The notes below the pieces were generated by a model. That model was not told where the DNA came from, searched no databases, and saw only the letters and a program-made list of their open reading frames with translations. The translations under genes and the position numbers were made by a program. Below, piece by piece: positions 30,063 through 47,407 of a DNA stretch of 64,000 nt; the stretch's first letter is position 1, and each line of letters begins with the position of its first letter. Location of the stretch: NCBI RefSeq assembly GCF_024502345.1, contig NZ_JALDNN010000001.1. One strand, written 5' to 3'. Source of the DNA: Escherichia coli. Lineage in GTDB: Bacteria; Pseudomonadota; Gammaproteobacteria; Enterobacterales; Enterobacteriaceae.

Positions 30063-31772
30063 ATGAGTATGTTTCAGATATCAGCTGGAGTGTTCTTTGA
30101 TTTAGATAAAATAGAAAAACACGATGGCGCATTTGTTTTTTATTCAAATGTTGATGTGTCTTTCTCGGTGGAAAACACCTCCCCTCTTTTTAAAGCAAAT
30201 AAAATAAGTCATGATGGTATAAACTGTTATGTGGTAAACTATACTCTCCTGACCGAAAAACCAGAACGAATTGAAGCTGGAGTCGTAGTTAGGGCTGGTG
30301 ATGAGGATTATAGGCAACAATTTATTTTATTATGGGAATTCTATTTTGATTGTGTGGCTAGAGTAGAAAAAGAATCGGTTAAAAAAATATGTGCATTATC
30401 AAATTTTAATAAACATCACTCAAAAATTGCGCTTGAAGTTGCCCCATATTTAGTGGAGATTAACCGAAGAGTTTCATTTGATGATGTCTCTGGGTTTTCT
30501 GCTTTTATTAAAGATGTAGTGAATCTAAATAGATCTGCCTTTAAATCTTTAATGGCAGCGTTAAAAATAATTAGTGATTCAAAAGAATCATTGTCAACCA
30601 ACTTTGACCTGACTTATTCCATGTTAGTCTATGCCTTGGAGTCTTTGTCTCAAAGAAATGATAACTATAAGTCTGATTGGGATGACTACGATCAAAAAAC
30701 CAGAGGTGAATTAGAGTCTGTATTTGAGCATATGCCTGGTGAGGATGTTTGTAAAATTAAATCAATACTTATTGAAGGCAAACAATTCAGATTACAAAAA
30801 AGGTTCAAAGATTTTATACTGAAAAATCTTGAAGAAAATTATTTCAATGAAACAGAGAGATATCCAATCCGCTATAGCTTCCTTAGTAGAGCTTTAGATA
30901 ATTTATACAAAATCAGGTCTTCTTTTGTCCATGAGCTTAAGCCACTTGATGCAATGATCTCGAAAGCCTACAATCCTGTTGGTGATTGTCTGGTTCTTTT
31001 TGGCGAACCTCACTTCAGTTACTCTGGATTGCTTCGACTTCTTCGCCATGTGATAATAAATTTTTGCCGTAAAAACTACAGTCAAAAAAGAGAGTATGTT
31101 AATTGGGTGATGGAAACATCGGGTGTAATGGTTGCAGAGATATCTGCACAATATTGGCTCTGGAATGCAGACGGATTTACAGCTAAAAGTATAGCGAAGT
31201 GGTTTAGTGAATACCTAAATATGTTAAATTTAGGCGAAGTCACTGATTTGCAGTCTATCATGGACAAAATTGAGATAATCTATGACCAATCCAAAAAAGA
31301 ATATAAAAATGGGTTGTTGTATTTTTATTTCTTATATAACTTAATGCATAATGGAAATAAGGGTGAATGGCTTGAGTTTGCGAACAAGCGAAGTTCTATA
31401 CTTGTTTGTGATATATATTGGTATTCATGCTCTCCATATTTATATAAATCATTTACTAATGTTTCAAATGGTATTGCTGATATAAAAACATTGAGAAACT
31501 TTTTGTCTTGTTTTAACGAATATGATAAAAATAAATTTAAGCCAAATCGTTTAAATCTCCCTGCAATGACCGAAGTAATTATGTTGGCTTGCGCAGCAAA
31601 TTCATTCTTCAGAATTGGAATGTATCAAGACTATGTTTTAATGGGCAATAGAGCGATGAGAGAAATTGCTTCAGTAAAAGATGTATTTTATTATATAAAA
31701 GAACGATTAAGTAATTCACAACTTATTGAATTGGACGAGTGCTTGAGATTGTATAGAAAAAAAGGGGGCTAA
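30063..31772 (+). CDS. Hypothetical protein, 569 aa, AT-rich, no family recognised
   Basis: Single long ORF with strong AT bias; GAGT-containing RBS-like sequence before the ATG; bracketed by integrase 3' remnants and inverted IS903 copies. Confidence 0.75.
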   Translation: MSMFQISAGVFFDLDKIEKHDGAFVFYSNVDVSFSVENTSPLFKANKISHDGINCYVVNYTLLTEKPERIEAGVVVRAGDEDYRQQFILLWEFYFDCVARVEKESVKKICALSNFNKHHSKIALEVAPYLVEINRRVSFDDVSGFSAFIKDVVNLNRSAFKSLMAALKIISDSKESLSTNFDLTYSMLVYALESLSQRNDNYKSDWDDYDQKTRGELESVFEHMPGEDVCKIKSILIEGKQFRLQKRFKDFILKNLEENYFNETERYPIRYSFLSRALDNLYKIRSSFVHELKPLDAMISKAYNPVGDCLVLFGEPHFSYSGLLRLLRHVIINFCRKNYSQKREYVNWVMETSGVMVAEISAQYWLWNADGFTAKSIAKWFSEYLNMLNLGEVTDLQSIMDKIEIIYDQSKKEYKNGLLYFYFLYNLMHNGNKGEWLEFANKRSSILVCDIYWYSCSPYLYKSFTNVSNGIADIKTLRNFLSCFNEYDKNKFKPNRLNLPAMTEVIMLACAANSFFRIGMYQDYVLMGNRAMREIASVKDVFYYIKERLSNSQLIELDECLRLYRKKGG

Positions 31773-31932: not shown

Positions 31933-32673
31933 GGCTTTGTTGAATAAATCGAACTTTTGCTGAGTTGAAGGATCAGATCACGTATCTTCCCGACAACGCA
32001 GACCGTTCCGTGGCAAAGCAAAAGTTCAAAATCACCAACTGGCCCACCTACAATAAAGCCCTCATCAACCGTGGCTCCATAACTTTCTGGCTGGATGATG
32101 AAGCTATTCAGGCCTGGTATGAGTCAGCAACACCTTCTTCACGAGGCAGACCTCAGCGCTATTCTGACCTTGCCATCACGACTGTGCTGGTCATTAAACG
32201 CGTATTCAGGCTGACCCTGCGCGCTGCGCAGGGCTTTATTGATTCCATTTTTTCTCTGATGAACGTTCCGCTACGCTGCCCGGATTACAGCTGTGTCAGC
32301 AGGCGGGCAAAGTCGGTTAATGTCAGTTTCAAAACGCCCACCCGGGGTGAAATCGCACACCTGGTAATTGATTCCACCGGGCTGAAGGTCTTCGGTGAAG
32401 GCGAGTGGAAAGTCAAAAAGCATGGCCAGGAACGCCGCCGTATCTGGCGTAAGCTGCATCTCGCCGTTGACAGTAAAACACATGAAATCATCTGCGCTGA
32501 CCTGTCGCTGAACAACGTTACGGACTCAGAGGCCTTCCCCGGGTTAATCCGGCAAACCCACCGGAAAATCAGGTCAGCCGCCGCCGATGGCGCTTACGAT
32601 ACCCGGCTATGTCACGATGAACTGCGGCGTAAGAAAATCAGCGCGCTTATCCCTCCCCGAAAAGGTGCGGGTT
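31933..32673 (+). mobile_element. IS903-family element, truncated second copy (~741 bp), inverted relative to copy 1
   Basis: Starts with GGCTTTGTTGAATAAATCGAACTTTTGCTGAG; identical to copy 1 up to ...AAAGGTGCGGGTT, then diverges into the yfjP-like fragment. Confidence 0.9.
31965..32673 (+). pseudogene. IS903-family transposase, C-terminally truncated
   Basis: First ~236 codons identical to the copy-1 transposase; track ORF continues in unrelated out-of-frame sequence. Confidence 0.8.
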
Positions 32674-33094
32674 GCATCACACCGTTCCAGAACTGCTCGT
32701 CCACCGACAGCGCACGGTCATCAGCTTTGATGACCCACAGCACCAGGTCAAGCTCTGGCAGCATACGCCGGTACAGGGCGCGGTATTCATGGTCCCGTTG
32801 TCCGTTCTCTCCCACGCCCGGTAAATCAACAATCACCAGACTGTGACGACCACTGCGCAGCCGGAAGCGCAGTATGTCGCGGGTGCAGGCGTTCACATCA
32901 CTGACGGCGGAGACTTCCCCCCGAAAGAGTTCGTTACAGAGCGACGACTTACCGGCACCACTCTTGCCCATGATGCCAATCACCGGCTCGTAGTGGGTCA
33001 GATTCTGAATACGTTCAAGAATAAGCTGGCGAAGCGTATCGGGAAGCGACGCCAGCGGTTTTTCCAGGGCCTGAAGGCCATCAGTTTTATTCAT
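32674..33094 (-). pseudogene. yfjP: YfjP/YkfA/YeeP-family GTPase, N-terminal fragment
   Basis: MNKTDGLQALEKPLASLPDTLRQLILERIQNLTHYEPVIGIMGKSGAGKSSLCNELF... (P-loop GKSGAGKS); cut short at the IS903 junction. Confidence 0.75.
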
Positions 33095-33726: not shown

Positions 33727-36540
33727 ATGCCAATGGAGAGCTGTACGCAAATGAACGCCGTAGAAATTGAACAAGCCATCACGGATCTTGCAGAGCAACC
33801 CTTTGATCCTATAGAGTTTCCTTATGCTTTTCTTGAAGCCTTTGGTAACAAGGAAACGACTGTCAAACGCTTGCGCGCCGGTGCATCAAACAAATCCGAC
33901 TTGGGCGGTGTTCTCCAGAGCAATAATATTCACATTCTGACCTGCGAAGCAGGGACTGTGACTCAGATGTTGGCCGCGCTCAAGGCTAGCCCTGCGACAA
34001 CTAAAGCCAAGGCGAAGTTCATCCTGGCTACAGATGGCAAAGATTTCGAAGCTGAAGACCTCGTTAGCGGTCAGACTGTCGCTTGCGCCTTTAAAGACTT
34101 CCCAGATCACTTCGGCTTTTTCTTGCCATTAGCAGGCATTAGCACAGTTCGTCAGATTTGTGAGAACTCCTTTGACATTCGGGCCACTAGCCGGCTGAAT
34201 CGTCTGTATGTCGAGTTGTTGAAAGATAACCCTACCTGGGGGACGGCGGAGCGACGTCATGACATGAACAAATTCATGACTCGGCTGATCTTTTGTTTTT
34301 TCGCTGAGGATACTGACATTTTCGTGGGTAAGGGACGCTTTACTGAAACCGTTGCGCAGATGAGTACAAGAGATTCGTCGAATACGCATGAAGTTATCGC
34401 TACCTTGTTTCGTGCCATGAACACCAGTAACAAAGATAGAGCCGCCGCTGGCATCCCGCGCTGGGCCAATGAGTTTCCTTATGTCAACGGACGCTTGTTC
34501 TCTGGGAGTAATGATGTACCACTGTTCAGTAAGATTGCACGGTCTTATTTGCTCCATGTGGGTAGCCTTGACTGGACCAAGATTAATCCGGATATCTTTG
34601 GCTCGATGATTCAGGCAATTGCCGAAGACGAAGAACGCGGAGAGCTGGGGATGCATTACACCAGCGTACCCAACATCTTAAAAGTTTTGAATCCACTATT
34701 TCTGGACGACCTGCGCGCAAAGCTGGATGAGGCGGGTGACAATCCGCGTATGTTGCTTAACCTGCGTAAGCGCATTTCCCACATCCGTGTGTTCGACCCA
34801 GCGTGCGGTTCTGGTAACTTTTTGGTTATCGCGTACAAGGAAATGCGTGCCATTGAGGCCGAAATCAACAAGCGGCGTAATGAGCCAGATCGCGCCTCGG
34901 ATATCCCACTTACCAACTTTCGCGGGATTGAACTAAGAGATTTCCCGGCAGAGATCGCCCGCCTTGCGCTTGTTATCGCTGAGTACCAATGTGATGTACT
35001 GTACCGTGGGCTGCGGTTGGCCTTGGCTGAGCTTCTTCCGTTACGCAACGAAAATTGGATTACCTGTGGCAATGCACTACGGCTCGACTGGTTAAGAATT
35101 TGCCCGCCGACAGGAACAGGTGTGAAATTACATGGCGATGACTTGTTTGGATCTCCGCTTGATCAGGCAGAGATCGACTTTGAGAATGAAGGCGGAGAGA
35201 CATACATTTGCGGTAACCCACCATACCTTGGTTCAAAGTGGCAGACGGATGAACATAAAGCTGATCTTGGCACAATCTTTTCTGGTCGCGTGAAAAATTG
35301 GAAATCGCTCGATTATGTTGCTGGCTGGTTCCTGAAAGCCGCTGACTATGGTAGCCAGACAAGTTCCCAGGCTGCTTTTGTTGCCACTAATTCAATCAGC
35401 CAAGGGCAGCAAGTGTCGATTCTGTGGCCGGAAATATTCAAGGCAGGACAAGAGATTAGTTTCGCTTACACGAGCTTTAAGTGGTCGAACCTCGCTACTC
35501 ACAACGCCGGGGTCACAGTTGTTATCATCGGAATTTCTAACTGTGTAGGAAAGTCGCGACGCCTCTTTTCGGCTGGAGGAGACAATGGTGCGACGACGTG
35601 TCGTGAGGTGGAGCGCATCAACGCCTATTTGATCGCTGGCCCTAACATCATTGTGGAGGGGGACAGTTGTCCAGCCGACAGTCTTGCAACGATGCAGTTC
35701 GGTAACCACCCGTACTATGGTGCATCACTGATCTTTTCGAGATCTGAAGCACAGCAGATGATGTCTGTCGATCCGCGTACGGCGCGTTTTATTCGCCCAC
35801 TATATGGCTCCCAAGAGTTCATTTCCGCTGTGCCACGAGCCTGTCTATGGATTAACGACGATGAGGCTGACGAAGCGGGGACGATTCCTCTGATAGCTGA
35901 GCGTATGAGCGCCGTAGCAAGTGCTAGACGTGCAAAAAAACAAGACAAGGCAGCCCAGAAACTGGCTAAGACTCCATATCGCTTTCGCGACCAGCAGACA
36001 TCTACGAATCATATTCTTGTGGTTCCTCGAGTCAGTTCAGAGAACCGTCCTTGCTTGCCGGTTGGATTACTTGACTCTGACTCTATCGTTCAAGATCAAG
36101 CATTCGCCCTTTACGACGCTCCTCTCTGGAACCTCGCCATCATAGCGAGTCGCCTGCATCTAGTTTGGATCGCCACGGTTTGTGGAAAGTTAGAGACACG
36201 CTACCGCTATTCAAACACCCTCGGCTGGAATACTTTCCCGCTCCCAACACTCACTGAGAAAAATAAGGCAGACCTCACGCGCTGTGCAGAGGATATTCTT
36301 CTGACTAGGGAGCATCACTTCCCTGCAACCATTGCAGACCTTTATGACCCCGAGAAGATGCCAGACGACCTGCGTATTGTGCACGAGCGTAATGACGAAG
36401 TGCTTGAGCGTATTTACATTGGGCGCCGCTTTAAGAATGACACAGAGCGGCTTGAGAAGCTGTTTGACCTTTATACTAAGATGGCCGCTTCAACTGCATC
36501 GGGCAAAAGCAATAAACGTAAAGTGGGAACCAATGCATGA
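33727..36540 (+). CDS. MmeI/PglX-like gamma-class N6-adenine DNA methyltransferase, 937 aa; no recognisable N-terminal PD-ExK motif
   Basis: Motif X-like HYTS, motif I VFDPACGSGNFLV, motif IV ICGNPPYLG; other blocks (RLIFCFFAEDTDIF, FPYVNGRLF, AFVATNSISQGQQVSILWP, LETRYRYSNTLGWNTFP) resemble the MmeI/PglX family from memory. Start could be Met-9 (33751). Confidence 0.85.
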   Translation: MPMESCTQMNAVEIEQAITDLAEQPFDPIEFPYAFLEAFGNKETTVKRLRAGASNKSDLGGVLQSNNIHILTCEAGTVTQMLAALKASPATTKAKAKFILATDGKDFEAEDLVSGQTVACAFKDFPDHFGFFLPLAGISTVRQICENSFDIRATSRLNRLYVELLKDNPTWGTAERRHDMNKFMTRLIFCFFAEDTDIFVGKGRFTETVAQMSTRDSSNTHEVIATLFRAMNTSNKDRAAAGIPRWANEFPYVNGRLFSGSNDVPLFSKIARSYLLHVGSLDWTKINPDIFGSMIQAIAEDEERGELGMHYTSVPNILKVLNPLFLDDLRAKLDEAGDNPRMLLNLRKRISHIRVFDPACGSGNFLVIAYKEMRAIEAEINKRRNEPDRASDIPLTNFRGIELRDFPAEIARLALVIAEYQCDVLYRGLRLALAELLPLRNENWITCGNALRLDWLRICPPTGTGVKLHGDDLFGSPLDQAEIDFENEGGETYICGNPPYLGSKWQTDEHKADLGTIFSGRVKNWKSLDYVAGWFLKAADYGSQTSSQAAFVATNSISQGQQVSILWPEIFKAGQEISFAYTSFKWSNLATHNAGVTVVIIGISNCVGKSRRLFSAGGDNGATTCREVERINAYLIAGPNIIVEGDSCPADSLATMQFGNHPYYGASLIFSRSEAQQMMSVDPRTARFIRPLYGSQEFISAVPRACLWINDDEADEAGTIPLIAERMSAVASARRAKKQDKAAQKLAKTPYRFRDQQTSTNHILVVPRVSSENRPCLPVGLLDSDSIVQDQAFALYDAPLWNLAIIASRLHLVWIATVCGKLETRYRYSNTLGWNTFPLPTLTEKNKADLTRCAEDILLTREHHFPATIADLYDPEKMPDDLRIVHERNDEVLERIYIGRRFKNDTERLEKLFDLYTKMAASTASGKSNKRKVGTNA

Positions 36541-38582
36541 GCAACAAGATTAGATCTGTACCGTCAGTTTCTGTTACCTACTCACGCAACGGAGCATCGA
36601 CCAAGGCTAATTCTCTTGGGATGCGTCCTATGCAAGAAAGGGCTTATGAGAAGCGCGGAGAACAATATCTTCTCATAAAGTCGCCGCCCGCCTCTGGCAA
36701 GAGTCGTGCGCTGATGTTCGTCGCACTCGATAAACTCGCAAACCAGGGGATCAAACAGGCAATCATTGTCGTGCCGGAAAAATCTATCGGCGCGAGCTTC
36801 AACGATGAACCGCTATCGCAGTTTGGATTCTGGGCTGATTGGCATGTTGAACCTAAGTGGAATCTGTGCAACGCCCCCGGTAACGACAACGGCGGCAAGG
36901 TAAAATCTTTCGGCTCTTTTCTTGAAAGTAGCGACAAGGTGCTTGTTTGTACACACGCAACCTTTCGCTTCGCGGTCGATGCCTACGGTGTAGAGGCGTT
37001 TGACGATCGCCTGATCGCCGTCGATGAATTTCACCATGTGTCCGCTAACCCGGATAACAAGCTTGGTCAGCATCTGGGACAGTTCATTGAGCGTGACAAG
37101 ACGCACATCGTGGCCATGACCGGCTCCTACTTCCGGGGAGATGCGGAAGCCGTTTTGGCTCCTCAGGATGAGTCTAGGTTCGATACCGTCACCTACACCT
37201 ACTACGAACAACTCAACGGTTACGAATACCTCAAACAGCTTGATATCGGATACTTCTTTTATAGTGGATCATACATTGATGACATCCTCAATGTCCTCGA
37301 TCCTGACAAGAAAACGATTATCCATATTCCCAACGTCAATTCGCGCGAGAGTACGAAGGATAAAATTAAGGAGGTGGAGCACATTCTGAGCGAGCTTGGC
37401 GATTGGCAAGGTGCGGATCCTACGACTGGTTTTCAGCTAGTCAAGCGCCCCGATGGCCATGTGTTGCGTATTGCTGACCTGGTGGACCCAGCCAGTCAAG
37501 GCAAGATTCAGGAAAGCCTCCGAGCTCCAGAAATGAAGACAGACCGTGACTATGTAGACATCATTATTGCACTTGGTATGGCGAAGGAAGGTTTCGACTG
37601 GATCTGGTGCGAACATGCGCTGACTGTTGGCTACCGTGCCAGCCTGACTGAGATCGTGCAGATTATCGGTCGCGCTACTCGCGACGCGCCGGGTAAAACC
37701 CGCGCGAGATTTACTAACTTGATCGCCGAGCCCGACGCTGTAGAGGGCGCAGTAACTGAGGCAGTCAACGATACCTTGAAAGCTATCGCGGCGAGCCTGT
37801 TGATGGAACAGGTACTGGCTCCGCGCTTCGAGTTCAAGCCCAAGAATCCTGAAATCGGTCCGACTCCAGGCTTTGATTATGGTGATGGAGGATATGACCC
37901 GGATAGCTGCAATTTTGGTGTTAATGAGCAGACAGGGACGTATCAAATCGAGATTAAGGGACTTGCCGAGCCTAGGAGCAAAGAGGCGGCACGTATCTGC
38001 CAGGAAGATTTAAACGAAGTGATCGCGGCCTTTGTGCAGGATAAGCCCGCCATCGAACGAGGCCTGTTCGATGAAGAGCTGATCCCTGAAGAGTTAACAC
38101 AGGTTCGTATGGGTAAGATCATCAAAGAAAAGTATCCTGAACTTGATGCTGAAGATCAGGAGGCTGTACGTCAGCATGCTATCGCCGCCCTTAACCTCAC
38201 GCAGCAGGCCAAGCGTCTTGCTACCGGTGAAAACGATGGGACGCTCAATACTGCTCTTATTGACGGAGTGCGTCGCTTTGCAATGGATGTGCGCGATTTA
38301 GACATAGACCTTATCGACCGCATCAATCCCTTTGGTGAAGCCTACGCTATCCTTGCTAAGACGATGAGTGAAGACAGTTTGAAGCAGGTCGCGGCGGCCA
38401 TCTCGGCCAAGCGTACTTCGATCACGCCTGAAGATGCCAAGGTGATCGCCAAGCGTGCCGCTGAATTCAAACGTGAACGTGGGCGCCTCCCATCGTTAAC
38501 TTCGCTGGATGCTTGGGAAAAACACCTTGCTGAAGGTGCAGCCGCGTTTATGCGTTTTAGGGCGGAGGGACGTTATGAGTAA
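36537..38582 (+). CDS. SF2 DExH-box helicase (ResIII-like), 681 aa, with ~270 aa C-terminal region of unknown function
   Basis: Motif I PPASGKS, motif II AVDEFHHV, motif III MTGS, motif VI QIIGRATRD; ATG overlaps the methyltransferase stop (ATGA). Confidence 0.85.
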   Translation: MSNKIRSVPSVSVTYSRNGASTKANSLGMRPMQERAYEKRGEQYLLIKSPPASGKSRALMFVALDKLANQGIKQAIIVVPEKSIGASFNDEPLSQFGFWADWHVEPKWNLCNAPGNDNGGKVKSFGSFLESSDKVLVCTHATFRFAVDAYGVEAFDDRLIAVDEFHHVSANPDNKLGQHLGQFIERDKTHIVAMTGSYFRGDAEAVLAPQDESRFDTVTYTYYEQLNGYEYLKQLDIGYFFYSGSYIDDILNVLDPDKKTIIHIPNVNSRESTKDKIKEVEHILSELGDWQGADPTTGFQLVKRPDGHVLRIADLVDPASQGKIQESLRAPEMKTDRDYVDIIIALGMAKEGFDWIWCEHALTVGYRASLTEIVQIIGRATRDAPGKTRARFTNLIAEPDAVEGAVTEAVNDTLKAIAASLLMEQVLAPRFEFKPKNPEIGPTPGFDYGDGGYDPDSCNFGVNEQTGTYQIEIKGLAEPRSKEAARICQEDLNEVIAAFVQDKPAIERGLFDEELIPEELTQVRMGKIIKEKYPELDAEDQEAVRQHAIAALNLTQQAKRLATGENDGTLNTALIDGVRRFAMDVRDLDIDLIDRINPFGEAYAILAKTMSEDSLKQVAAAISAKRTSITPEDAKVIAKRAAEFKRERGRLPSLTSLDAWEKHLAEGAAAFMRFRAEGRYE

Positions 38583-39753
38583 TTCTGATTTAGACGATTT
38601 GGCGGCAGAACTTGCTGAATTTGCACCACCGGAGAAGAAAAAAGGACGTCCAGCCAGCGAGGAACGCATCATCGCAGGTTTTGAGGAAATCCAGCGCTTC
38701 GCTGACCAACATGGACGTGCGCCGCAACACGGCGAAGAGCGTGAGATCTTTGAGCGCCTCTATGCAGTGCGGCTCGACCGGCTACGCAGTCTCCCAGACT
38801 GCCGTGCCTTGCTAGAGCCGCTGGATCATCAAGGCTTATTGGCTGGAGGGGGTGATGTAGCGGAGTCAGCGGACGAAATTATCGATATCGATAATTTGGC
38901 TGCCGAACTGACGGATGTTTCCAGCGAGGATGATATCACAGTCTTGCGTCATGTTCGTGCTAGCGCCGAAAAGCGTGCTGTACAAGGGATCGCGGATCGC
39001 AAGCCGTGCGAGGATTTTGATACATTCAAACCGCTATTTGAACAGGTGCGCAGTGATCTAAGTTCAGGGTTAAGAGTGACCCGACCTTTTGGACAGTATG
39101 CAACGATTGAAGTGGGCCATTGGTTCATCCTGGATGGTCAAACGGCTTATGTGGCTGAGGAAGGTGAAGAGTTCGATTCTCCACAGGGGAAGAAAGATGC
39201 TCGGCTGCGTGTCATTTATTCGAATGGTACAGAAAGTAACCTGCTTCGGCTGTCATTAGTTCGTGCTTTGTATAAAGACGAAACAGCACGTCGAATTACC
39301 GATCCAGACATGGGGCCTTTATTCAGCGATGCTCTAGAAGAGAGCGATCTAGAAAGTGGCACCATTTATGTATTGCGTTCGCTATCAGATAACCCTTATG
39401 TGGCCGAACATCGTGATGTTATTCACAAGATTGGTGTGACTGGCGGCAAGGTCGAGACTCGTATTGCTAATGCTGAACACGATTCCACCTATCTGTTGGC
39501 GAAGGTAGAGGTGGTCGCTTCATACAAACTCGCAGGTATCAACCGCACCCGGATGGAAAACCTGTTTCACAGGTTGTTTGCACCCGCAAGGCTTAACATT
39601 ACCATTAACGACCGTTTCGGCCATCCAGTACAGCCCGAGGAATGGTTTCTCGTTCCGTTATTCGTTATCGATGAGGCTGTTGCACGTATTAAGGATGGTA
39701 GCATCATTGGGTATGTTTATGACCCCATGTCTGCGAAACTGGTGAAGGCATAG
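38575..39753 (+). CDS. GIY-YIG-like / T5orf172-like domain protein, ~392 aa (tentative domain call)
   Basis: GGAGG RBS then ATG at 38575 overlapping helicase stop (ATGAGTAA); C-terminal region GTIYVLRS...YVAEHRDVIHKIGVTGGKVETRIAN resembles GIY...YIG-R; acidic N-terminus. Confidence 0.65.
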   Translation: MSNSDLDDLAAELAEFAPPEKKKGRPASEERIIAGFEEIQRFADQHGRAPQHGEEREIFERLYAVRLDRLRSLPDCRALLEPLDHQGLLAGGGDVAESADEIIDIDNLAAELTDVSSEDDITVLRHVRASAEKRAVQGIADRKPCEDFDTFKPLFEQVRSDLSSGLRVTRPFGQYATIEVGHWFILDGQTAYVAEEGEEFDSPQGKKDARLRVIYSNGTESNLLRLSLVRALYKDETARRITDPDMGPLFSDALEESDLESGTIYVLRSLSDNPYVAEHRDVIHKIGVTGGKVETRIANAEHDSTYLLAKVEVVASYKLAGINRTRMENLFHRLFAPARLNITINDRFGHPVQPEEWFLVPLFVIDEAVARIKDGSIIGYVYDPMSAKLVKA

Positions 39754-39868: not shown

Positions 39869-40660
39869 ATGAATAGTAACCTGACCAAGATATGTTACCG
39901 TGGTGAGACTGGTGAAAGTGATCTAAGAACGTTGATACTTGGTGAGATTCTATATATCTCACTACGAGATGTTTTAATCACGCTGAATAAAGAAAATAGA
40001 GAAATCAACGCTGATTACACAGTAAAATCGATGGCTGGAATAATCAGGGCGCAATTACAGGCTCTTGACCCTGATGAGTATATTACTACAGATGCTGAAA
40101 ATGGTGTTTTTGAAGGTCAGAAAGAGATCTTCGTCACCCAGCCAGGTTTGTATCGAGTCATGTCAAGTGACCGAAGCGCTGCCGGTAAGCGCTTTCAAAA
40201 ATGGTTATTTCATGAAGTCATACCATCATTGACTAAGCATGGTGTATACCCGCCTCCGCCAGAAGCGAAAGGTTCAGCCCTTGCACAAATGGCTGAGATA
40301 CTTGCTCAAAATTCGCGAGCACTTGCTGACGCAATCCATAAACACGAAAAACTGGCCGAAGATGTCTCACAGGTTAAAGGTAAAGTTGCCAACGTTGAAA
40401 GCCGTCTGGAACTGTTAGAATCAGGTCCTTCCACTGTAACTGAAGATATGCATACTCTTGATAGCCGTCTCGCTTATTTGGACATGAGCATGGAAGAAAA
40501 GCATACCACCGAGACATTAGCCTGGTGCGAGAATATTTCTGTTCAAAATAACAGGAAGGTGATTCGCAAGGACTGTAGGGAGAATTCGCTCTTTACAACG
40601 CAGACTATCGACGAAGCAATCGCTATCATGACTGAAAGTGGAAAAATCACACCAAATTGA
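39869..40660 (+). CDS. Bro-N domain protein (phage antirepressor-like), 263 aa
   Basis: ...GLYRVMSSDRSAAGKRFQKWLFHEVIPSLTKHG matches the Bro-N/Ant hallmark (F..W...EV.PSI); coiled-coil-like C-terminal half. Confidence 0.7.
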   Translation: MNSNLTKICYRGETGESDLRTLILGEILYISLRDVLITLNKENREINADYTVKSMAGIIRAQLQALDPDEYITTDAENGVFEGQKEIFVTQPGLYRVMSSDRSAAGKRFQKWLFHEVIPSLTKHGVYPPPPEAKGSALAQMAEILAQNSRALADAIHKHEKLAEDVSQVKGKVANVESRLELLESGPSTVTEDMHTLDSRLAYLDMSMEEKHTTETLAWCENISVQNNRKVIRKDCRENSLFTTQTIDEAIAIMTESGKITPN

Positions 40661-40748
40661 AGATCCTGGGGTTCAGATTATCTGCTGGCTATCTTATTGA
40701 GCTCTGACGTAAAATAGGCCTTCCCACAAAGAGAAGGCCATTGCCGAC

Positions 40749-41375
40749 TTACAGATCGATTTGGCTACAGCCGAAGTTACGGTCTCCTTCACCAAACACT
40801 TTGCTTTCGACTTTGGTGAGGTAATCCAGTCGGGTTAACAGCGCTTGGTAGTTATGCTGGAAGTCAGCATTATTGGTATCCAGCACGTACTTACAGTTGT
40901 CAGGAAAATGGACCAGACCAGGGTGATCATCCAGTTTCAGTCCCAGGGCGCTGTACCACGCTCCCGTAATCATCCCTCTCAGGTTATCGTGCTGATCGTA
41001 ATCCCCGAGGTGGTAGTAAGCGTCTTTGTTGAACAACAGGCAAATGTGGTAGTGGCATTTACCTGACTCAGAATACTCTTTCGCCCATATAATAAATAAA
41101 GGGCAACGGTAGATGCGTTTACCTTCACGCTCCTTACGGGTACGGTCAGCCTCCAGTTTAGCTCTGAGGGAATCACGCATTCGGGATATCACCCCTGGTT
41201 CAAGATTAGGGAAACAGCAGATATTGTCTCCGTTATCGACTATCTTCGGATAATGCAGATCGACACGTACCGCCGTTAACCTGGGGTAACGGTTAGTCAA
41301 ATAACATAATAATTTTTTAATCTTGATCTGATATTCGAGGATATGTACTCCATGAGTACCTTGATATGTTTTCAT
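40749..41375 (-). CDS. YagK/YfjJ-family protein (inovirus Gp2-like)
   Basis: 208 aa ORF with Cys/His-rich stretch (CHYHICLLFNKDAYYH); family assignment from memory of CP4-57/CP4-6 yfjJ/yagK. Confidence 0.6.
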   Translation of the reverse strand: MKTYQGTHGVHILEYQIKIKKLLCYLTNRYPRLTAVRVDLHYPKIVDNGDNICCFPNLEPGVISRMRDSLRAKLEADRTRKEREGKRIYRCPLFIIWAKEYSESGKCHYHICLLFNKDAYYHLGDYDQHDNLRGMITGAWYSALGLKLDDHPGLVHFPDNCKYVLDTNNADFQHNYQALLTRLDYLTKVESKVFGEGDRNFGCSQIDL

Positions 41376-41646
41376 AATATATATCTGTATTTGGTCCTAC
41401 GGTCTATAGCAGACCGTACAGGGATGCCATACAGGCAGGGCTATTCCTGGTCACTGTTGTCGGTATATACTGGTATCAGATCTTAGTACGGATATACTGA
41501 TCTGATTACTACTCTTACTGGTGAATACAGGTAGTAAGAGTACACAATGCCATTATATAATACCTATCCAACATCTAAATTTGAGACGAAGGTAGCCCCA
41601 GCCTGTGATGGCTGTTAAAAAGTTACTCTGCAATTAGCTTCTGGAA

Positions 41647-42216
41647 TTAACCGATGATTCCGTTATTCCAGTGCCGCTTCACAGTCGATAAACTGATACT
41701 CAATTTCTTTGCAATCTCAGCCTGAGTAAATCCACCTTTCTTAAGTATTGTGATATCACGTCGGTATTTGCTTCCCTCCTTTCGTCCTAATTTCTTCTTA
41801 ACATGTCGATATCGGCTTTTAGTTGATTTCAGATTGTGAATGTCAATCGTATCCTGACGAGCAATCAAAAAAGACAAGCAACTTTCAGCAGAAGGCTCTA
41901 TCCTTGAAGCTGGATGGTAGCTGTAGATAAAAATTTCTTTTTGAAGGCAAAAAAATAAAATATTCTGTAAGTCCTCCACAGTTCTGCCAAGACAGCTTAG
42001 ATCTGGAATGACAAGCGTGTCCTGCCGGTTCATTTCATGATGAATCAATTGTCTGAGTAAACGTTGCTCTGAAACAACCTCTTTAATATCTACCTGCTCG
42101 ATCACAACATGTTCAGGTAGAATATTAAATTTTTGGCATATCTCAGCAAGTGAGTGATGATCTGTAATGCTTTCTTGCTGTTCGCTACTGCATATGGTGT
42201 AAAAAAATGAACGCAT
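41647..42216 (-). CDS. Serine recombinase-like protein (resolvase/invertase fold), possibly catalytically altered
   Basis: From internal Met: MRSFFYTICSSEQQ (cf. YARVSTxxQ), LVIPDLSCLGRTVEDL (cf. DRLGR), C-terminal HTH GFTQAEIAKKLSISLSTVKRH. Track ORF extends to 42345. Confidence 0.6.
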   Translation of the reverse strand: MRSFFYTICSSEQQESITDHHSLAEICQKFNILPEHVVIEQVDIKEVVSEQRLLRQLIHHEMNRQDTLVIPDLSCLGRTVEDLQNILFFCLQKEIFIYSYHPASRIEPSAESCLSFLIARQDTIDIHNLKSTKSRYRHVKKKLGRKEGSKYRRDITILKKGGFTQAEIAKKLSISLSTVKRHWNNGIIG

Positions 42217-42371
42217 CTGATGCACTCCGGTGTCATAAATTATTCTTTGATACCTGAACAATGTCATTTTGTATAAAAAATAACCAAAAATAGAGCGTGA
42301 TTGCCAGCGATACTTTGAGTGGTAAAGTAGTATTTTACCTCTCATAATTGTTTGTCCTTCTTTGTTACCTC

Positions 42372-43085
42372 TTAGGTTCTGCTCTCCTGTGAGTATGGGT
42401 TTATAATGATGTCATCCGGTGCATTAACACGGTTGGAAACATTTGTTTTACGGATCACTGGCAGCATAACCACCATCTCATTGACATGGTAAATATCAAT
42501 CCAACAAACAACCGGATAAGGCATAACAATCCCCTTTCTTCTAAGAACTTCATTTATCCCGAATATAATTAATTGGGATGTTGACAAGAGTAGAGTCTGC
42601 CCGACATCAAAGTAATAATCCTCAAAGGTTGTTCTATGAATAAGAATAATGTTTGAATATCCCAAGACACTTTGATGCTTTACATTAAAATGTCGTTGAT
42701 TGTAAATGTAAATGGCTTTTTCCATATCGTAATTTTCCCTCAGCGAGGATAGCCTTTCACGTATAACTGTTTTTTCATCTTTCCCCATGAATTCATCATT
42801 AGCGTTCAGTTTAAAGTAATCTGTAATTGGGATTTTTAATGGACTCATGATGTTCGTTTTCCAGATTAACGAACAGTATTCTTCCAGAGTCACTTCTTTT
42901 TCACCTCGATTTCGAATAATTCTTTCATTTATAGTGAATCTTAGTAGATCGTTTTTTAGCTCCTTTATTAGCCATTGATAGCGAAGACATTGCTCGAATA
43001 TATGTACCGTCAACGCCACAGAGTCTGATATGACTGAGGAAAGAGATTTATTATTCATCCTGGCATAATGCTCAAGAGTTTCCAT
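42372..43085 (-). CDS. Hypothetical protein, 237 aa, AT-rich
   Basis: Long ORF with no recognised motifs; between resolvase-like gene and alpA. Confidence 0.55.
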   Translation of the reverse strand: METLEHYARMNNKSLSSVISDSVALTVHIFEQCLRYQWLIKELKNDLLRFTINERIIRNRGEKEVTLEEYCSLIWKTNIMSPLKIPITDYFKLNANDEFMGKDEKTVIRERLSSLRENYDMEKAIYIYNQRHFNVKHQSVLGYSNIILIHRTTFEDYYFDVGQTLLLSTSQLIIFGINEVLRRKGIVMPYPVVCWIDIYHVNEMVVMLPVIRKTNVSNRVNAPDDIIINPYSQESRT

Positions 43086-43245
43086 CTCAGATTCATTTTT
43101 GTGCGTAAAAGTGTATTTTTTATTGGAAATGTTTTTTACTCCTTATAATTAACATTGCTATTAATTAATCCTGTTTGTAAAGGAGAAGTTTATTAATAAG
43201 TAAAAGTCCGCCTGCATCAAGACACGATGAAAATGTCTTCCTTTC

Positions 43246-43458
43246 TTACTCTATTGCCCGGGTTCGTTGTAAAATCCATTCGTCTATTTCAGCCTCTATC
43301 CAGCCGACAGATTGCAGCCCCAGACGACGTTGTTTCGGGAACGTTGGGTCATAGCGTGGCGATTTCGGATTGATCCAGTCATAGATTGTTGAACGTGACA
43401 AGCCCGTTTTGTCAATTACTGTAGAAAGACGAAGTATTTTAACATTAGATTTGTTCAT
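43246..43458 (-). CDS. alpA: AlpA-family prophage regulatory protein (excisionase-like HTH)
   Basis: 70 aa: MNKSNVKILRLSTVIDKTGLSRSTIYDWINPKSPRYDPTFPKQRRLGLQSVGWIEAEIDEWI, characteristic AlpA sequence. Confidence 0.85.
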   Translation of the reverse strand: MNKSNVKILRLSTVIDKTGLSRSTIYDWINPKSPRYDPTFPKQRRLGLQSVGWIEAEIDEWILQRTRAIE

Positions 43459-43649
43459 AGCTGATTACCTCAAATCGAAGTGCTCTGGATGATGTGAGAT
43501 TAGCTTTAAGGCAGCCAATCTAAAATGTATGTGCCAAAAAAACTTTTTTTTACGAACGGGAAATAAATATCCTATTGAAATTTAATGATTTTATTTTTTT
43601 TCTGTCGGGTCCATCAGAACGGTGTGAATTCAGTTACAGCCTTCCGGTC

Positions 43650-44570
43650 CGGTAATGGGCCAGTTATATGTTGAGTGGCTGCGCTTCGATGACTTCTGTT
43701 TCAGTGGGCTGGTCTATCTCCGACGTGCTGTGGCAGGTAGCGGTTCAGCAGTAGCCATTATTCGTTCTGCTCCGTCAGTACCGCACCCAGCAGCCGCAAG
43801 ATGCTCTCTTCATTGGGAAGATACCTACCACTGTCAACGCCAAGATTGTTGGCCGTTTCGTCCGCATCCCCTATTGGTCATTAATGTTGTCCGCTTTCCG
43901 CCGTTTCATCTCTTTGTTCAGGCGCTCCAGCGTGTTTGTGGAGTGGGTTTTTCACTTGGTGTGCTTTCGGGAGGCCGAAGGACGCCAGCACGTCTGCCTC
44001 TGCTTCGTCCATCACCCCGGTGACCGCCGGGTTGCTTTTCTCCCATTGACCGGCAACCTTGCACAGGTGGCATGGGCGCTTTTCTCGTCGGTCTGCACGA
44101 ACACCTGTTGCAGCGCCGCACGGACCACCGACTGGTTTGCACGGCTGACGCGGCTCAGCACGTTGCGCATGAAGTGGACCCGGCAGCGCTGCCAGCTGGC
44201 GGAGAACATCTGCCTATCGCCGCCTTCAGGCTCAGCAGGAAGGTCAGCCAGGATGCCGTTTATCCATGCTTCCTGGATAACCGCGTTGAGCGCCTTCTCA
44301 GACAATCTGTGGGCCTCCAGGAAGGGCGGGAAGTACGTCCCTTTAAGCAGCTTCGGAATACGCAGGTCCACAGCGTGCCGAGCTGGCGGGGACTGACGGT
44401 CACGATAGCCGTTGTGGTAGGTTTCGCGCTCATCGCTGCGCTAGTGGGCTCCGCGTTGATGTGCTGAGTGACATCTGCTTCCATAATGCAGTTGAGCATA
44501 AATTCGGTGAGTTCACGCAGAAAATCCTCGCCGCCGAGTAGCATCAGGGTGTTGCTGAATGTCATGCTGT
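43650..44570 (-). pseudogene. IS256-family (mutator-type) transposase, frameshifted remnant
   Basis: Reverse-strand ORF pieces ...LRELTEFMLNCIMEADVTQHINAEP..., ...RLSEKALNAVIQEAWINGI..., ...VHFMRNVLSRVSRANQS... resemble IS256-family blocks in different frames; GC-rich. Confidence 0.55.
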
Positions 44571-44784
44571 TGTCATTCCGAATTTACACCACGCCCTAAG
44601 ACTCTACCTTATTTTCTTTGCAAAGCAGGCTGCTTGTGCAAGTTGTACATGTAGTTAACAGGCAGTAAGTATGGCAAACCATTATTTCATGTCTTCACAT
44701 CTGGTTCTTCATTCAGTTAAGTAGTAAAAATGAAAGGGATGTCAGAGCAAGAACAGATGACGTTGTGTAACTGACCAATGAAGG

Positions 44785-45558
44785 ATGATATGGAATATGC
44801 TTGATATTTTTTGCTCGGAATTTGAAGAAAAAAGAAACAAATTAAAGACCTACCTTGAAAGCTCGGGATTTCTTTATAGGCATTCTATCATCAAAAAAAT
44901 GTCTCTTTTGGATGGTATGGATGAAAGCCAGAATTTTGAGTTGTTGCAGGCGAAACAATATAATCGTGATGATATACAATGCTGGGAGTATATTAGCTCT
45001 AAGTGGACCGTCGTTCCTATTATGATGGGTTCGCAAAGCCTTAAACACTTTTTTACATGGAATTTTAAGGCCGCTGGGATATTTCAGCGATATGGAAAGG
45101 ATATGTGGGATATCAACAAGATAATTGCAGTTAAATCTTTATTGTTTGCTAGTTCAGTCTTAGGTAGTTGCCTTGGGGTTGCAGGCTATGGCCCGTTGCT
45201 GCCTTCGGAGCTTGCATTAGACAAAAAGAAGCTAACTAAGAAAAAACAGTCAGCAAGAATGGGAGGGATATCTAAGGCTGAATTATATCTCCCGATAAAA
45301 GAAGAGACGATAAGATTGCTCCACCAAAATGTTCCTGTGGATGGTAGATGGAAAAATAAAACGGTTGCAGCAAAGGCAATAGAGGCAGATTTAGTCATCT
45401 TTGTACAAAATTTGAAATCTCAAAACCAAAATCTGGATCTTAATGAAGAAGATATTATTACAGTCGTCAAACGTTGGGAACGCAATGATGAAAGAGTAAA
45501 GGCTGCATTTGAGGGAACGGTGAAGCAAAAAATCTCTGGCAAGAAGGGCTCGGGTTAG
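44785..45558 (+). CDS. Hypothetical protein, 257 aa, AT-rich, integrase-proximal
   Basis: Long ORF with no recognised motifs; AAGGA RBS favours the second ATG (44797); convergent with integrase. Confidence 0.65.
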   Translation: MIWNMLDIFCSEFEEKRNKLKTYLESSGFLYRHSIIKKMSLLDGMDESQNFELLQAKQYNRDDIQCWEYISSKWTVVPIMMGSQSLKHFFTWNFKAAGIFQRYGKDMWDINKIIAVKSLLFASSVLGSCLGVAGYGPLLPSELALDKKKLTKKKQSARMGGISKAELYLPIKEETIRLLHQNVPVDGRWKNKTVAAKAIEADLVIFVQNLKSQNQNLDLNEEDIITVVKRWERNDERVKAAFEGTVKQKISGKKGSG

Positions 45559-45587
45559 AACTTCTCATTATTTTTTCCAAAAATAAG

Positions 45588-45612
45588 AACCGCGCCTTTG
45601 AAGGCGCGGATT
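45588..45612 (-). terminator. Probable intrinsic terminator downstream of the integrase gene
   Basis: Hairpin CCGCGCCTT-TGAA-AAGGCGCGG followed (reverse strand) by a T-rich run. Confidence 0.5.
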
Positions 45613-45620
45613 AAGTAGAA

Positions 45621-46862
45621 TCAAACAACAAGTTTTAATGCACCGGCACTAGATTCTACCATGCTTCCTTTATCTGCTCTTTTAACAAAATCAGCCCACC
45701 ATTGCATCATCGGCCTACGTTGCTCAAGATAATCACTGCGGTTATAAGCGCGACGTACCTCATTTTTGTCTACATGAGCAAGTGCGGCTTCAATGACATC
45801 AGGAGGAAATCCTTGCTCATTGAGGGCTGTACTGGCGATAGAACGCAAACCATGTGAAACCAGCACTCCCCCTAAACCGGCACGCTTGAGTGCAGCATTC
45901 ACGGTTTGACTGTTCATCGGCTGAGTGGGCTTAATGCGGCTTGGAAAAATAAAATCTCGGCCACCACTGAGCGGCTTCATCATTTCCAGAATAGCCAGAG
46001 CCCCATCAGATAATGGAACGGTATGGTCCCGGTTCATTTTCATTCGGGCTGCTGGAATTTTCCATTCGTTAGCATCAAAATCGATCTCATTCCACCGAGC
46101 TTCTGCGGCTTCTGCGGGGCGGGTGATGGTGAGAAGTTGCCACATGAACAGACACCGCGTAGACAGGCTGATACTGGCCGTACGCATAGTTTGCATCAAC
46201 TGAGGCAACTGATCCGGACGAATACTGGGCATGTTCTTTTTCTGAGGTTTCTCGAAGGCTTTGCCAATATTAACACTGGGAACTGCATCAATCAGGCCCG
46301 TGTTTTGGGCATAAATCATGACTTCATTGATCCGTTGGCAAAGACGGCGGACAGTTTCCAGTGCTCCTCGGGCCTGAACGGGTTGAACGGCTTGAACCAG
46401 TGTATGGGCTTTAATATCTGTAACGCTTACGTTGCCAATTGCGGGAAATATATCTCTTTCAAGCGAACGCCAGATATCATCAGCATAGTCCTCGGTTACA
46501 CTGGCTTTCTTCACATTCCACCAACGCTCGGCAACTAACAAGAAAGTGTTGGTTTTGGCCTCCTGAGAATTTCTTATCTGTTCTTTTTGGTATTCCTGAG
46601 GATCGATTCCTTTTGCCAGTAATACTTTGGATTCAGCTCTGAGCTTACGAGCATCGGAAAGCGAGACAGCAGGATAGGAACCGAAGCTCTGTTTAGTTCG
46701 CTGTTTTGTCAGAGGTCGGTAATAACGGAATTGCCAGAGCTTACTGCCACTGGATTTGATTAGCAGCGTCAGTCCGTCACCATCATACAACTGATAATCG
46801 GCATCTTTAGATTTGGCTGCTTTGATTTCCGTATCCGTTAACGGCTTGGTTTTTCTTGCCAC
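45621..46862 (-). CDS. intA: P4/CP4-57-type tyrosine integrase (IntA-like)
   Basis: 413 aa: MARKTKPLTDTEIKAAKSKDADYQLYDGDGLTLLIKSSGSKLWQFRYY...; C-terminal catalytic region HGLRSIASTA...AHVDKNEVRRAYNRSDY; adjacent to ssrA 3' end. Confidence 0.93.
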   Translation of the reverse strand: MARKTKPLTDTEIKAAKSKDADYQLYDGDGLTLLIKSSGSKLWQFRYYRPLTKQRTKQSFGSYPAVSLSDARKLRAESKVLLAKGIDPQEYQKEQIRNSQEAKTNTFLLVAERWWNVKKASVTEDYADDIWRSLERDIFPAIGNVSVTDIKAHTLVQAVQPVQARGALETVRRLCQRINEVMIYAQNTGLIDAVPSVNIGKAFEKPQKKNMPSIRPDQLPQLMQTMRTASISLSTRCLFMWQLLTITRPAEAAEARWNEIDFDANEWKIPAARMKMNRDHTVPLSDGALAILEMMKPLSGGRDFIFPSRIKPTQPMNSQTVNAALKRAGLGGVLVSHGLRSIASTALNEQGFPPDVIEAALAHVDKNEVRRAYNRSDYLEQRRPMMQWWADFVKRADKGSMVESSAGALKLVV

Positions 46863-47044
46863 GGTGGAGTCTCCATGCTTTTAGGCCCAACAAAGACCAT
46901 AGATCTTTTCGTTGGGCCTATCAATGGGCCTAAAACAATTAGCTTAGGTAGGATCAAATCAGATAGCGCTGGACATAAAAAAGCCCGTAAGTCGTTGTGA
47001 CTACGGGTTTTTTGGTTTTTCTTGGATTGCTTTGGAATAAAATT

Positions 47045-47407
47045 TGGTGGAGCTGGCGGGAGTTGAACCCGCGTCCGAAATTCCTACATCCTCGGTACTA
47101 CATGCTTAGTCAGTCTTTACATTCGCTTGCCAGCTGCGGACGGACACGCCACTAACAAACTAGCCTGATTAAGTTTTAACGCTTCAACCCCAGGCAGGGC
47201 TTCCACGCGATCTCTTTTGGGTTTGACCTCTCTTGATCCCCGTCCTAAGAGCGGAGGCTAGGGAGAGAGGGCTCTAAGCAGGTTATTAAGCTGCTAAAGC
47301 GTAGTTTTCGTCGTTTGCGACTATTTTTTGCGGCTTTTTACGAGGCCAACCGCCCCTCGGCATGCACCTTGGGTTTCGCAAATCCCGTCGAATCCAGAAT
47401 CAGCCCC
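47045..47407 (-). ncRNA. ssrA: tmRNA (SsrA), 363 nt
   Basis: Reverse complement begins GGGGCTGATTCTGGATTCGACGGG and ends GGTTCAACTCCCGCCAGCTCCACCA; terminator-like hairpin follows at ~46975-47015. Confidence 0.97.

Follow-up and report, generated by a model that had tools for sequence, protein, structure and literature searches.

Whether the MmeI-like methyltransferase encoded at positions 33727 to 36540 of the window (the whole stretch of 64,000 nucleotides of Escherichia coli DNA analysed here) carries a nuclease of its own is the first question raised by this locus. The second is which proteins would cut DNA in its place if it does not. MmeI has the catalytic residues D70, E80 and K82, cleaves DNA unaided and lacks conserved partner genes. 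The present protein has the residues G, L and C in place of the triad and is accompanied by two partner genes.

Gene and domain organisation

The reading frame of the methyltransferase is unbroken and the ORF is real, as judged from the ORF list and the translation. Homologs and the RefSeq protein WP_077565017.1 start at M9 (window position 33751), which suggests that the true length is probably 929 rather than 937 AA. Residues are numbered throughout as in the 937 AA ORF of the sequence-only reading, which begins at the first ATG (33727). All five MmeI Pfam domains were found, spanning residues 9-921, and both the SAM motif FDPACGSGNF and the catalytic NPPY are seen in the translation. The MmeI_N match (residues 9-167, E 4.8e-33) covers its model end to end (positions 1-181). 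The features are as follows.

33727..36540, + strand: YeeA/DnmA-type MmeI-family N6-adenine DNA methyltransferase (937 AA ORF)
33751..34251, + strand: MmeI_N-homologous N-terminal domain without PD-ExK catalytic residues (AA 9-175)
34258..34500, + strand: MmeI helical spacer domain (AA 178-258; Pfam MmeI_hel, E 6.2e-25)
34723..35568, + strand: gamma-class N6-adenine methyltransferase domain with motif I and NPPY (AA 333-614; Pfam MmeI_Mtase, E 1.2e-115)
35638..36252, + strand: target recognition domain, TRD (AA 638-842; Pfam MmeI_TRD, E 4.9e-79)
36256..36489, + strand: MmeI C-terminal domain (AA 844-921; Pfam MmeI_C, E 8.2e-16)

Similarity to MmeI thus extends over the whole length of the protein, as in the family definition of Morgan et al. 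2009 (PMC2731913). The MmeI structure (PDB 5hr4) is matched at E 4e-138. The PADLOC profile REase_MTase_IIG (PDLC03598), 912 positions long, scores 943 bits and is covered from position 4 to 910.

The N-terminal domain and its missing catalytic triad

The first half of the N-terminal domain is too diverged from MmeI for pairwise alignment. The alignment with 5hr4 begins only at query residue 96 (MmeI 108), past the catalytic motif, and phmmer searches with the N-terminal 172 residues gave no match among PDB sequences, even at E 10. An HMM built exclusively from motif-bearing N-domains aligned no more of the query than residues 93-166, the latter half of its domain (E 1e-8). Pairwise methods cannot therefore position the catalytic columns and group profiles are required. 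Two independent alignments, a MAFFT L-INS-i alignment of 103 N-termini and an hhalign alignment of one subgroup profile with the other (160 columns, E 2.6e-26, probability 99.7%), place the same segment opposite MmeI 69-86.

33904..33957, + strand: segment GGVLQSNNIHILTCEAGT, opposite MmeI V69-K86 (AA 60-77; located by MAFFT, column counts and profile-profile alignment)

In both alignments D70 of MmeI corresponds to G61 and E80 to L71, while K82 faces a gap in the first and C73 in the second. The PD-ExK residues that characterise the MmeI family at these three columns are absent. Other acidic residues conserved in the true MmeI enzymes are also lost (E25 faces a gap and E51 corresponds to R50). 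The claim of the sequence-only reading that this domain has no PD-ExK motif is borne out, and the alignments with MmeI revealed no intact one.

Two remnants of a catalytic motif were considered and rejected. A regular expression search of the first 200 residues returns a single [DE]xK, D103-G-K105, ruled out as a hidden (D/E)xK since K105 is replaced by A, V or T in 120 close homologs. The other candidate, E74 of the CEAG stretch with D58 as the aspartate, is discarded because both alignments set MmeI E80 at L71. Moreover, close homologs have D, E or A at position 74, and 118 of 119 have G at position 76, indicating that no hidden ExK is present.

The distribution of the triad among relatives follows the phylogeny. 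D, E and K occupy the three columns in all 33 representatives of one clade and in none of the 68 of the other, to which the query belongs (101 full-length representatives in total). The 33 motif-bearing representatives are distant relatives, whereas every close relative falls among the 68 that lack the triad. Since the split follows the clades, loss of the triad is a property of the clade and not a local decay or a chance lesion. The MmeI-like methyltransferase is confirmed to have an N-terminal domain without catalytic residues.

It is extremely improbable that the motif is missing in appearance only, through a misassigned start, a frameshift or an alignment error. The first ATG is indeed probably not the true start, and phmmer failed to align residues 1-95 to MmeI. 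However, the frame is continuous, MmeI_N is matched over its entire model, the two alignment methods agree, the same residues occur in 120 homologs from many lineages and near-identical E. coli genomes have the same methyltransferase sequence. In strain KCJ3K291 the operon is 99.9-100% identical. Inspection of the frame, the Pfam matches, the alignments and the homologs gave nothing in favour of such an error.

An N-terminal domain that keeps a relocated metal-binding site, or still cuts DNA through a relocated, non-canonical one, is likewise very unlikely. The candidate would be an acidic face formed by D103, D106, E108 and E110 on a β-hairpin (residues 98-111), which would resemble the D...ExE variant of BamHI. 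Among the 120 close homologs D103, G104, E108 and E110 vary little or not at all and D106 is common, but these sequences are at least 75% identical overall and their invariance carries little weight. D103 and D111 are conserved in both subgroups, and a D-x7-D-x-K pattern (103/111/113) is present in roughly half of the representatives without the motif and in 2 of the 33 that have it. Across the motif-less group as a whole, however, E108 is replaced by L, V or A and E110 by Y, R or K, and the query itself has V113 instead of the lysine. In addition, later work found that YeeA/DnmA on its own is a methylation-only enzyme. Nye 2020 (PMC7261158), citing Morgan 2009, states that the B. subtilis protein had no endonuclease activity when assayed under conditions that had served for other MmeI homologs.

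Partner genes and relation to known systems

Two genes follow the methyltransferase directly.

36537..38582, + strand: YeeB-type superfamily 2 helicase, 681 AA (Pfam DEAD/ResIII, residues 28-196; RefSeq 'DEAD/DEAH box helicase')
38575..39753, + strand: YeeC-type T5orf172/GIY-YIG-family putative nuclease, 392 AA (RefSeq 'GIY-YIG nuclease family protein')

The methyltransferase stop and the helicase start overlap as ATGA at 36537, and the helicase end overlaps the start of the putative nuclease by 8 nt (38575-38582). All three ORFs are full length, end at their own stop codons and have intact catalytic motifs. The helicase motifs are I (SGKS, 53-56), II (DEFH, 163-166), III (TGS, 195-197) and VI (QIIGRATR, 375-382). 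The putative nuclease is matched by MUG113 (7.5e-13) and T5orf172 (1.2e-10) over residues 262-372 and retains the GIY/YIG-like elements GTIYVL and HKIGVT. The methyltransferase is therefore not the stand-alone gene typical of MmeI, its partners overlapping its 3' end. The island that carries the operon is integrated at ssrA, and in the window IS elements flank the operon, with an IS5 transposase at 31965-32846. In several E. coli genomes an IS66 element interrupts the operon.

The association with the two partners is not restricted to E. coli. In a sample of 7 gene neighbourhoods, a helicase gene and then a T5orf172/GIY-YIG gene lie directly downstream in all four motif-less homologs, which are 35-44% identical and whose loci span metagenomic lineages, while they are not found downstream of the motif-bearing homologs P0207 and P0238. 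One homologous locus also carries a BrxR-type WYL regulator upstream.

A motif-less MmeI homolog with a DEAD-superfamily helicase and a GIY-YIG-family (T5orf172) gene as neighbours corresponds to the published definition of the YeeA/DnmA group, to which we assign the locus (Morgan et al. 2009, PMC2731913). That study described a second group of MmeI homologs, typified by B. subtilis YeeA with YeeB and YeeC, in which the N-terminal endonuclease motif is missing, and proposed for it a model of restriction in trans. A methyltransferase of this group is expected to place m6A at an asymmetric site and to have no endonuclease activity by itself. The B. subtilis proteins share with those described here the full-length similarity to MmeI without D70/E80/K82 and the order and orientation of methyltransferase, DEAD-type helicase and GIY-YIG/T5orf172 genes. 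The host and the setting differ, the present copy occupying an E. coli island at ssrA. B. subtilis YeeB and YeeC are reported to be without the C-terminal stretches of the active Vibrio homologs (mBio 2023, PMC9973331). The yeeAB genes of V. crassostreae 7F1_18 form the same type of methylase-helicase cluster on a strain-specific island. They are the only member of the group with a reported anti-phage phenotype: once they were inactivated, the strain was again sensitive to one phage group (Piel et al., bioRxiv 10.1101/2021.05.05.442762).

Type IIL enzymes such as MmeI (PDB 5hr4), a family characterised by cleavage about 20 nt from the recognition site, share the five-domain architecture, with a gamma-class N6-adenine methyltransferase and a TRD in one chain. 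In BREX, PglX/BrxX has a catalytic core related to MmeI and is a partner-dependent specificity factor without its own nuclease. The comparison with PglX drawn in the sequence-only reading holds as a functional analogy but not as a shared pattern in the N-terminal domain, since PglX has no nuclease-type domain and its N-terminus is a helical bundle (PMC11341690), whereas the methyltransferase retains an MmeI_N homolog and has lost the catalytic residues only. Its similarity to PglX is limited to the SAM-binding motif: the best NCBIfam PglX match, BREX_1_MTaseX, reaches 25.8 bits against a cut-off of 500 and covers residues 347-417 only. The partners of PglX are BrxA/B/C, PglZ and BrxL, and no BREX component was found among the six neighbouring proteins scanned with PADLOC and NCBIfam. 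Unlike Type I systems (EcoKI, EcoR124I HsdR), the operon has no separate HsdS. In Type I and Type ISP enzymes a PD-ExK or Mrr domain is fused to the motor, while here the GIY-YIG/T5orf172 nuclease is a polypeptide of its own. The Type ISP enzymes LlaGI and LlaBIII combine nuclease, helicase, methyltransferase and TRD in a single polypeptide, in contrast to the three ORFs of this locus.

Proposed restriction in trans and its alternatives

Comparison with the ECC-1470 allele shows that the proteins do not vary uniformly. The N-terminal domain is 91% identical, the TRD 50%, the helicase 96% and the nuclease 98%. Between E. coli alleles the methyltransferase is thus best conserved in its motif-less MmeI_N-like domain and most variable in the TRD. 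This is the pattern expected if the N-terminal domain must fit conserved partners while specificity diversifies, and the contrast of helicase and nuclease with the TRD argues for purifying selection on the partners together with diversification of specificity. Given the variability of the TRD, the recognition sequence presumably differs from that of B. subtilis YeeA.

We consider it fairly probable, from sequence comparison, that the YeeA/DnmA-type methyltransferase heads a translationally coupled three-gene operon that would restrict DNA in trans with the helicase and the nuclease. The methyltransferase, with its own TRD, would mark host sites and recognise unmodified sites on incoming DNA. 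The conserved but catalytically empty N-terminal domain would provide the coupling surface for the helicase and the nuclease, which would then perform ATP-dependent restriction in trans, as in a Type I-like system. The retained MmeI_N-like domain may act as a signal-transducing adaptor that licenses YeeB and YeeC once an unmethylated site is bound; such a docking role is suggested by its conservation. The domain architecture, the clade-wide loss of the triad, the synteny and the intact motifs are shown, and the parts of the model that we infer are physical coupling through this domain, the cutting of DNA by the GIY-YIG protein and a role of the E. coli copy in phage defence. The proposal of the sequence-only reading that the helicase and the GIY-YIG-like protein plausibly provide any restriction activity in trans gains support from the gene overlaps, the intact motifs and the synteny kept in 4 of 4 loci. 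It nonetheless stays at the level of a proposal, because the literature searched contains no demonstrated cleavage by, or complex of, the three YeeABC-type proteins.

The B. subtilis data count against the restriction model. Strains deleted for dnmA, yeeB or yeeC behaved normally in transformation and towards three phages, and the dnmA-yeeB-yeeC operon restricted neither plasmid uptake nor those phages. The genomes of Bacillus phages show no depletion of the DnmA motif, and m6A influences promoter activity; DnmA has been proposed to be an epigenetic regulator (PMC7261158, PMC9973331). These results favour an explanation in which the operon is a non-restricting relic, with the methyltransferase an orphan epigenetic regulator as proposed for DnmA and the downstream genes idle in defence. 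The IS5 transposase beside the operon and the IS66 interruptions point in the same direction. However, three full-length ORFs that overlap at their stop and start codons and whose catalytic motifs are intact are not what a relic would be expected to show. Nor are partners kept 96-98% identical between alleles with so divergent a TRD, synteny held at 35-44% identity across metagenomic lineages, or a V. crassostreae homolog that defends against phage. We regard the relic as unlikely.

Less likely still is a defence module of helicase and T5orf172 nuclease that works without reading the methylation mark, the methyltransferase having another role. Such a module might, for example, respond to intermediates of phage replication or work through abortive infection, with the methyltransferase protecting against or regulating a different activity. 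This would agree with the absence of motif depletion in Bacillus phages, with the restriction of the V. crassostreae phenotype to one phage subgroup and with the BrxR-type WYL regulator upstream of one homologous locus, as found in many non-RM defence systems. On the other hand, the three genes stay together in the same order, and alleles differ in the TRD in the way that RM specificity subunits do. A site-specific methyltransferase that retains a nuclease-like adaptor domain is most simply explained by discrimination between self and non-self DNA, as in the model of restriction in trans.

The missing motif and the idea of a nuclease acting in trans are already published for the YeeA/DnmA class and constitute a rediscovery here. 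The idea has been taken up since 2009 in the DnmA papers of 2020 and 2023 and in the Vibrio study of 2021; the literature searched for a newer named defence system matching the operon yielded none beyond the DnmA/YeeABC papers. What is added is the observation that, within the methyltransferase, the N-terminal domain differs least between E. coli alleles, and the label given to the protein by PADLOC. In PADLOC v2.0.0 it is called a Type IIG 'restriction enzyme-methyltransferase', and models for the helicase and nuclease partners are absent. Automated surveys are therefore likely to record such loci, wrongly, as Type IIG systems standing alone. An intact copy on an E. coli island, for which natural alleles exist whose differences lie chiefly in the TRD, would be a convenient model for the YeeABC-type mechanism and for the question of whether these operons represent a genuine and distinct kind of helicase-dependent restriction system.

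Architecture of the methyltransferase and its genomic setting

The MmeI-like methyltransferase (the query) carries the complete MmeI architecture in Pfam: MmeI_N (residues 9-167, E 4.8e-33, model matched end to end), MmeI_hel (178-258), MmeI_Mtase (333-614), MmeI_TRD (638-842) and MmeI_C (844-921). Its translation shows FDPACGSGNF, for SAM binding, and the catalytic motif NPPY. It matches 5hr4, the sequence of the solved MmeI structure, at E 4e-138 (HMMER), the pairwise alignment starting only at query residue 96 (MmeI 108). Homologs begin at a second in-frame ATG (M9, 33751), as does the gene annotated by RefSeq in an E. coli locus of 99.9% identity; residues are numbered here from 33727, as in the sequence-only reading. 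The genes considered are:

30063-31772 (+): 569-aa ORF just upstream of the operon
33727-36540 (+): methyltransferase, 937 codons (RefSeq 'class I SAM-dependent DNA methyltransferase')
36537-38582: SF2 helicase, 681 aa, start overlapping the methyltransferase stop (ATGA) (RefSeq 'DEAD/DEAH box helicase')
38575-39753: putative nuclease, 392 aa, start overlapping the helicase gene end by 8 nt (RefSeq 'GIY-YIG nuclease family protein')
39869-40660: BRO-N protein gene of the island, followed, before the integrase gene, by yagK/L/M-like genes
45621-46862 (-): integrase gene
47045-47407 (-): tmRNA gene

The helicase exhibits motifs I (SGKS), II (DEFH), III (TGS) and VI (QIIGRATR). At its C-terminus the 392-aa protein has a GIY-YIG-related domain (MUG113/T5orf172) that contains GTIYVL and HKIGVT elements. 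Of 5426 complete E. coli genomes, 98 carry this helicase-nuclease pair, on the chromosome every time. The operon lies within an island integrated at ssrA, with smpB beyond the tmRNA gene (39869-47407); other E. coli strains carry the same three genes in related islands whose flanks differ (IS66, IS26/fosA3, IS100). The 569-aa ORF occupies a patch of 33.6% GC (about 50% around) between IS elements. Pfam gives no match to it, even at E 10, and PADLOC only a weak one to 'Cas13-ApeA' (7e-6); it may encode an uncharacterised toxin or defence protein.

Loss of the PD-ExK motif

Active MmeI-family members are defined by D70, E80 and K82 (Morgan et al. 2009, PMC2731913), positions fixed here on an MmeI reference whose first 264 residues are 100% identical to 5hr4. 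HMMER, run exhaustively over 1.84 billion representative proteins, returned 9362 relatives of the query, and the N-termini of the query, MmeI and the 101 full-length relatives among the best 150 were aligned. One group of 33 representatives has D/E/K at all three columns (33/33), together with the conserved E25 and E51; all are at most 37% identical to the query. The other 68, which include every close relative of the query, lack D/E/K and show D, E or G at column 70, mostly K or R at column 80, and a gap or V, L or A at column 82. The query itself reads G61, L71 and a gap, or G61, L71 and C73 in an hhalign profile-profile alignment of the two groups (probability 99.7%, E 2.6e-26, 160 columns). 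The sequence-only reading, which quoted GGVLQSNNIHILTCEAGT (residues 60-77) and reported that the domain has no PD-(D/E)xK motif, is thus borne out at the very place it named. Start-codon and alignment artefacts are excluded, since MmeI_N is matched in full, the two alignments agree and close homologs show the same residues. These comparisons confirm motif loss as a property of the whole clade rather than a chance lesion.

Two possible remnants were rejected. The sole [DE]xK within residues 1-200 is D103-G-K105, and 120 close homologs have A, V or T at position 105. In 'CEAG', residue 74 varies among close homologs, and 118 of 119 of them have Gly at position 76.

AlphaFold2, given a 70-sequence alignment, models residues 1-175 with confidence (mean pLDDT 93.2) as a mixed alpha/beta domain, and a Foldseek search with this model returned no significant match. 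The model lends modest support to a nuclease-type fold; homology to the MmeI nuclease domain is supported chiefly by Pfam and by the profile-profile alignment. An HMM built from motif-bearing domains alone covers no more than the second half of the query domain, so that the half expected to contain the active site is the most diverged. A relocated active site might be sought in an acidic hairpin face invariant in the query sub-branch (D103, E108, E110; D106 frequent), or in the D-x7-D-x-K at 103/111/113 that about half of the wider motif-less representatives carry. Such a site is most improbable: the motif-less group as a whole does not conserve these residues, the query has V113 and YeeA showed no nuclease activity. 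D103 and D111 (residues 103/111/113 correspond to 34033-34065) are conserved in both groups alike, and K at 113 occurs in 33/68 motif-less vs 2/33 motif-bearing representatives among the best 150 of the 9362 relatives.

Partner genes and allelic variation

Genomic context was checked for a small sample of seven representatives. In all four motif-less ones (P0133, P0141, P0171 and P0236; 35-44% identity to the query) a helicase gene (640-700 aa) and then a T5orf172/MUG113 gene (385-440 aa) lie directly downstream. The three motif-bearing ones are P0207 and P0238, with unrelated neighbours, and P0220, whose contig ends at the gene. Motif loss thus appears to go with the helicase and T5orf172 partners in this small sample, in agreement with the literature.

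Other arrangements were observed among relatives. P0085 (369 aa, metagenomic 1743-bp contig) joins a YeeA-type N-domain and helical spacer (ending ...LPYVNGGLFSGRMDVP) directly to the C-terminal half, with T5orf172, of a YeeC-type protein (HKIGVTG...), and is either a large internal operon deletion or an assembly chimera. A tandem pair of C5 DNA_methylase genes adjoins MmeI-family genes, one motif-bearing and two motif-less, at three unrelated metagenomic loci (L004 3243-5054, L006 1216-3068, L008 4201-5996). At another locus a gene for a BrxR-type regulator (L002 1158-1925; WHD_BrxR/WYL/BrxR_CTD) runs into the start of a YeeA-type methyltransferase gene that has its helicase and T5orf172 genes downstream, which hints that some YeeA-type operons are regulated like BREX and other defence systems.

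Identity between the window and E. coli ECC-1470 alleles (N-domain entry: 33751-34251 vs ECC-1470 locus L012 821-3604)
N-domain: 91%
Helical spacer: 81%
Methyltransferase domain: 77%
TRD: 50%
C-terminal domain: 85%
Helicase: 96%
Nuclease: 98%

Within the methyltransferase, the motif-less N-domain differs least between these two alleles, tracking the near-identity of the partner proteins. The TRD has been exchanged or has diverged, suggesting TRD swapping on a conserved chassis. Such a pattern is expected, short of proof, of an N-domain that serves as a functional interface and of an operon selected as a specificity-switching restriction system.

Proposed restriction in trans and annotation of the family

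Both the missing motif and its interpretation were already published in 2009. Morgan et al. described a second set of MmeI homologs without the endonuclease motif, exemplified by B. subtilis YeeA, whose neighbours are 'invariably' a putative DEAD-type helicase (YeeB-like) and a GIY-YIG-motif protein (YeeC-like). They proposed that the MmeI-like subunit provides specificity and modification while its N-terminal domain contacts the helicase and endonuclease subunits (PMC2731913). The operon is probably a Type I-like restriction-modification system of the YeeABC type, in which the methyltransferase would recognise and modify sites and restriction would come from the helicase and GIY-YIG protein, coupled through the conserved N-domain. 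The sequence-only reading of restriction in trans is accordingly reasonable, its observation being correct; it agrees with Morgan et al. and with the partners downstream of all four motif-less genes, and remains a proposal.

According to Nye et al. 2020 (PMC7261158), YeeA/DnmA methylates GACGAG and showed no endonuclease activity under conditions used for other MmeI homologs, and no restriction of transformation was found in B. subtilis. Synteny is conserved across species and no phage defence was found in B. subtilis (2023 mBio paper, PMC9973331). The main rival is that, as argued for that species, the present copy is a relic and its methyltransferase an orphan enzyme; the intact motifs, overlapping genes and conservation pattern between alleles make this unlikely. 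Still less likely is a helicase-nuclease defence module independent of methylation. In Vibrio crassostreae, yeeAB inactivation restored sensitivity to one phage group (Piel et al., bioRxiv 10.1101/2021.05.05.442762). Literature searches for a newer named system or biochemical characterisation of this operon type returned nothing further.

The likeness to BREX PglX drawn from the sequence holds only as a functional analogy: the N-terminus of PglX is a helical bundle, and the protein lacks a nuclease-type domain (PMC11341690). Its match to the query is confined to the SAM motif region (25.8 bits vs a 500-bit cut-off), and no BREX genes occur among the neighbouring proteins scanned.

The residual value of the finding concerns annotation of a three-gene system described as widespread. 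PADLOC-DB v2.0.0 model PDLC03598 'REase_MTase_IIG' matches the motif-less query over its full length at 943 bits, labelling it a Type IIG restriction enzyme-methyltransferase, and PADLOC v2.0.0 has no model for the helicase and GIY-YIG partners, so that automated defence annotation likely mislabels such loci.
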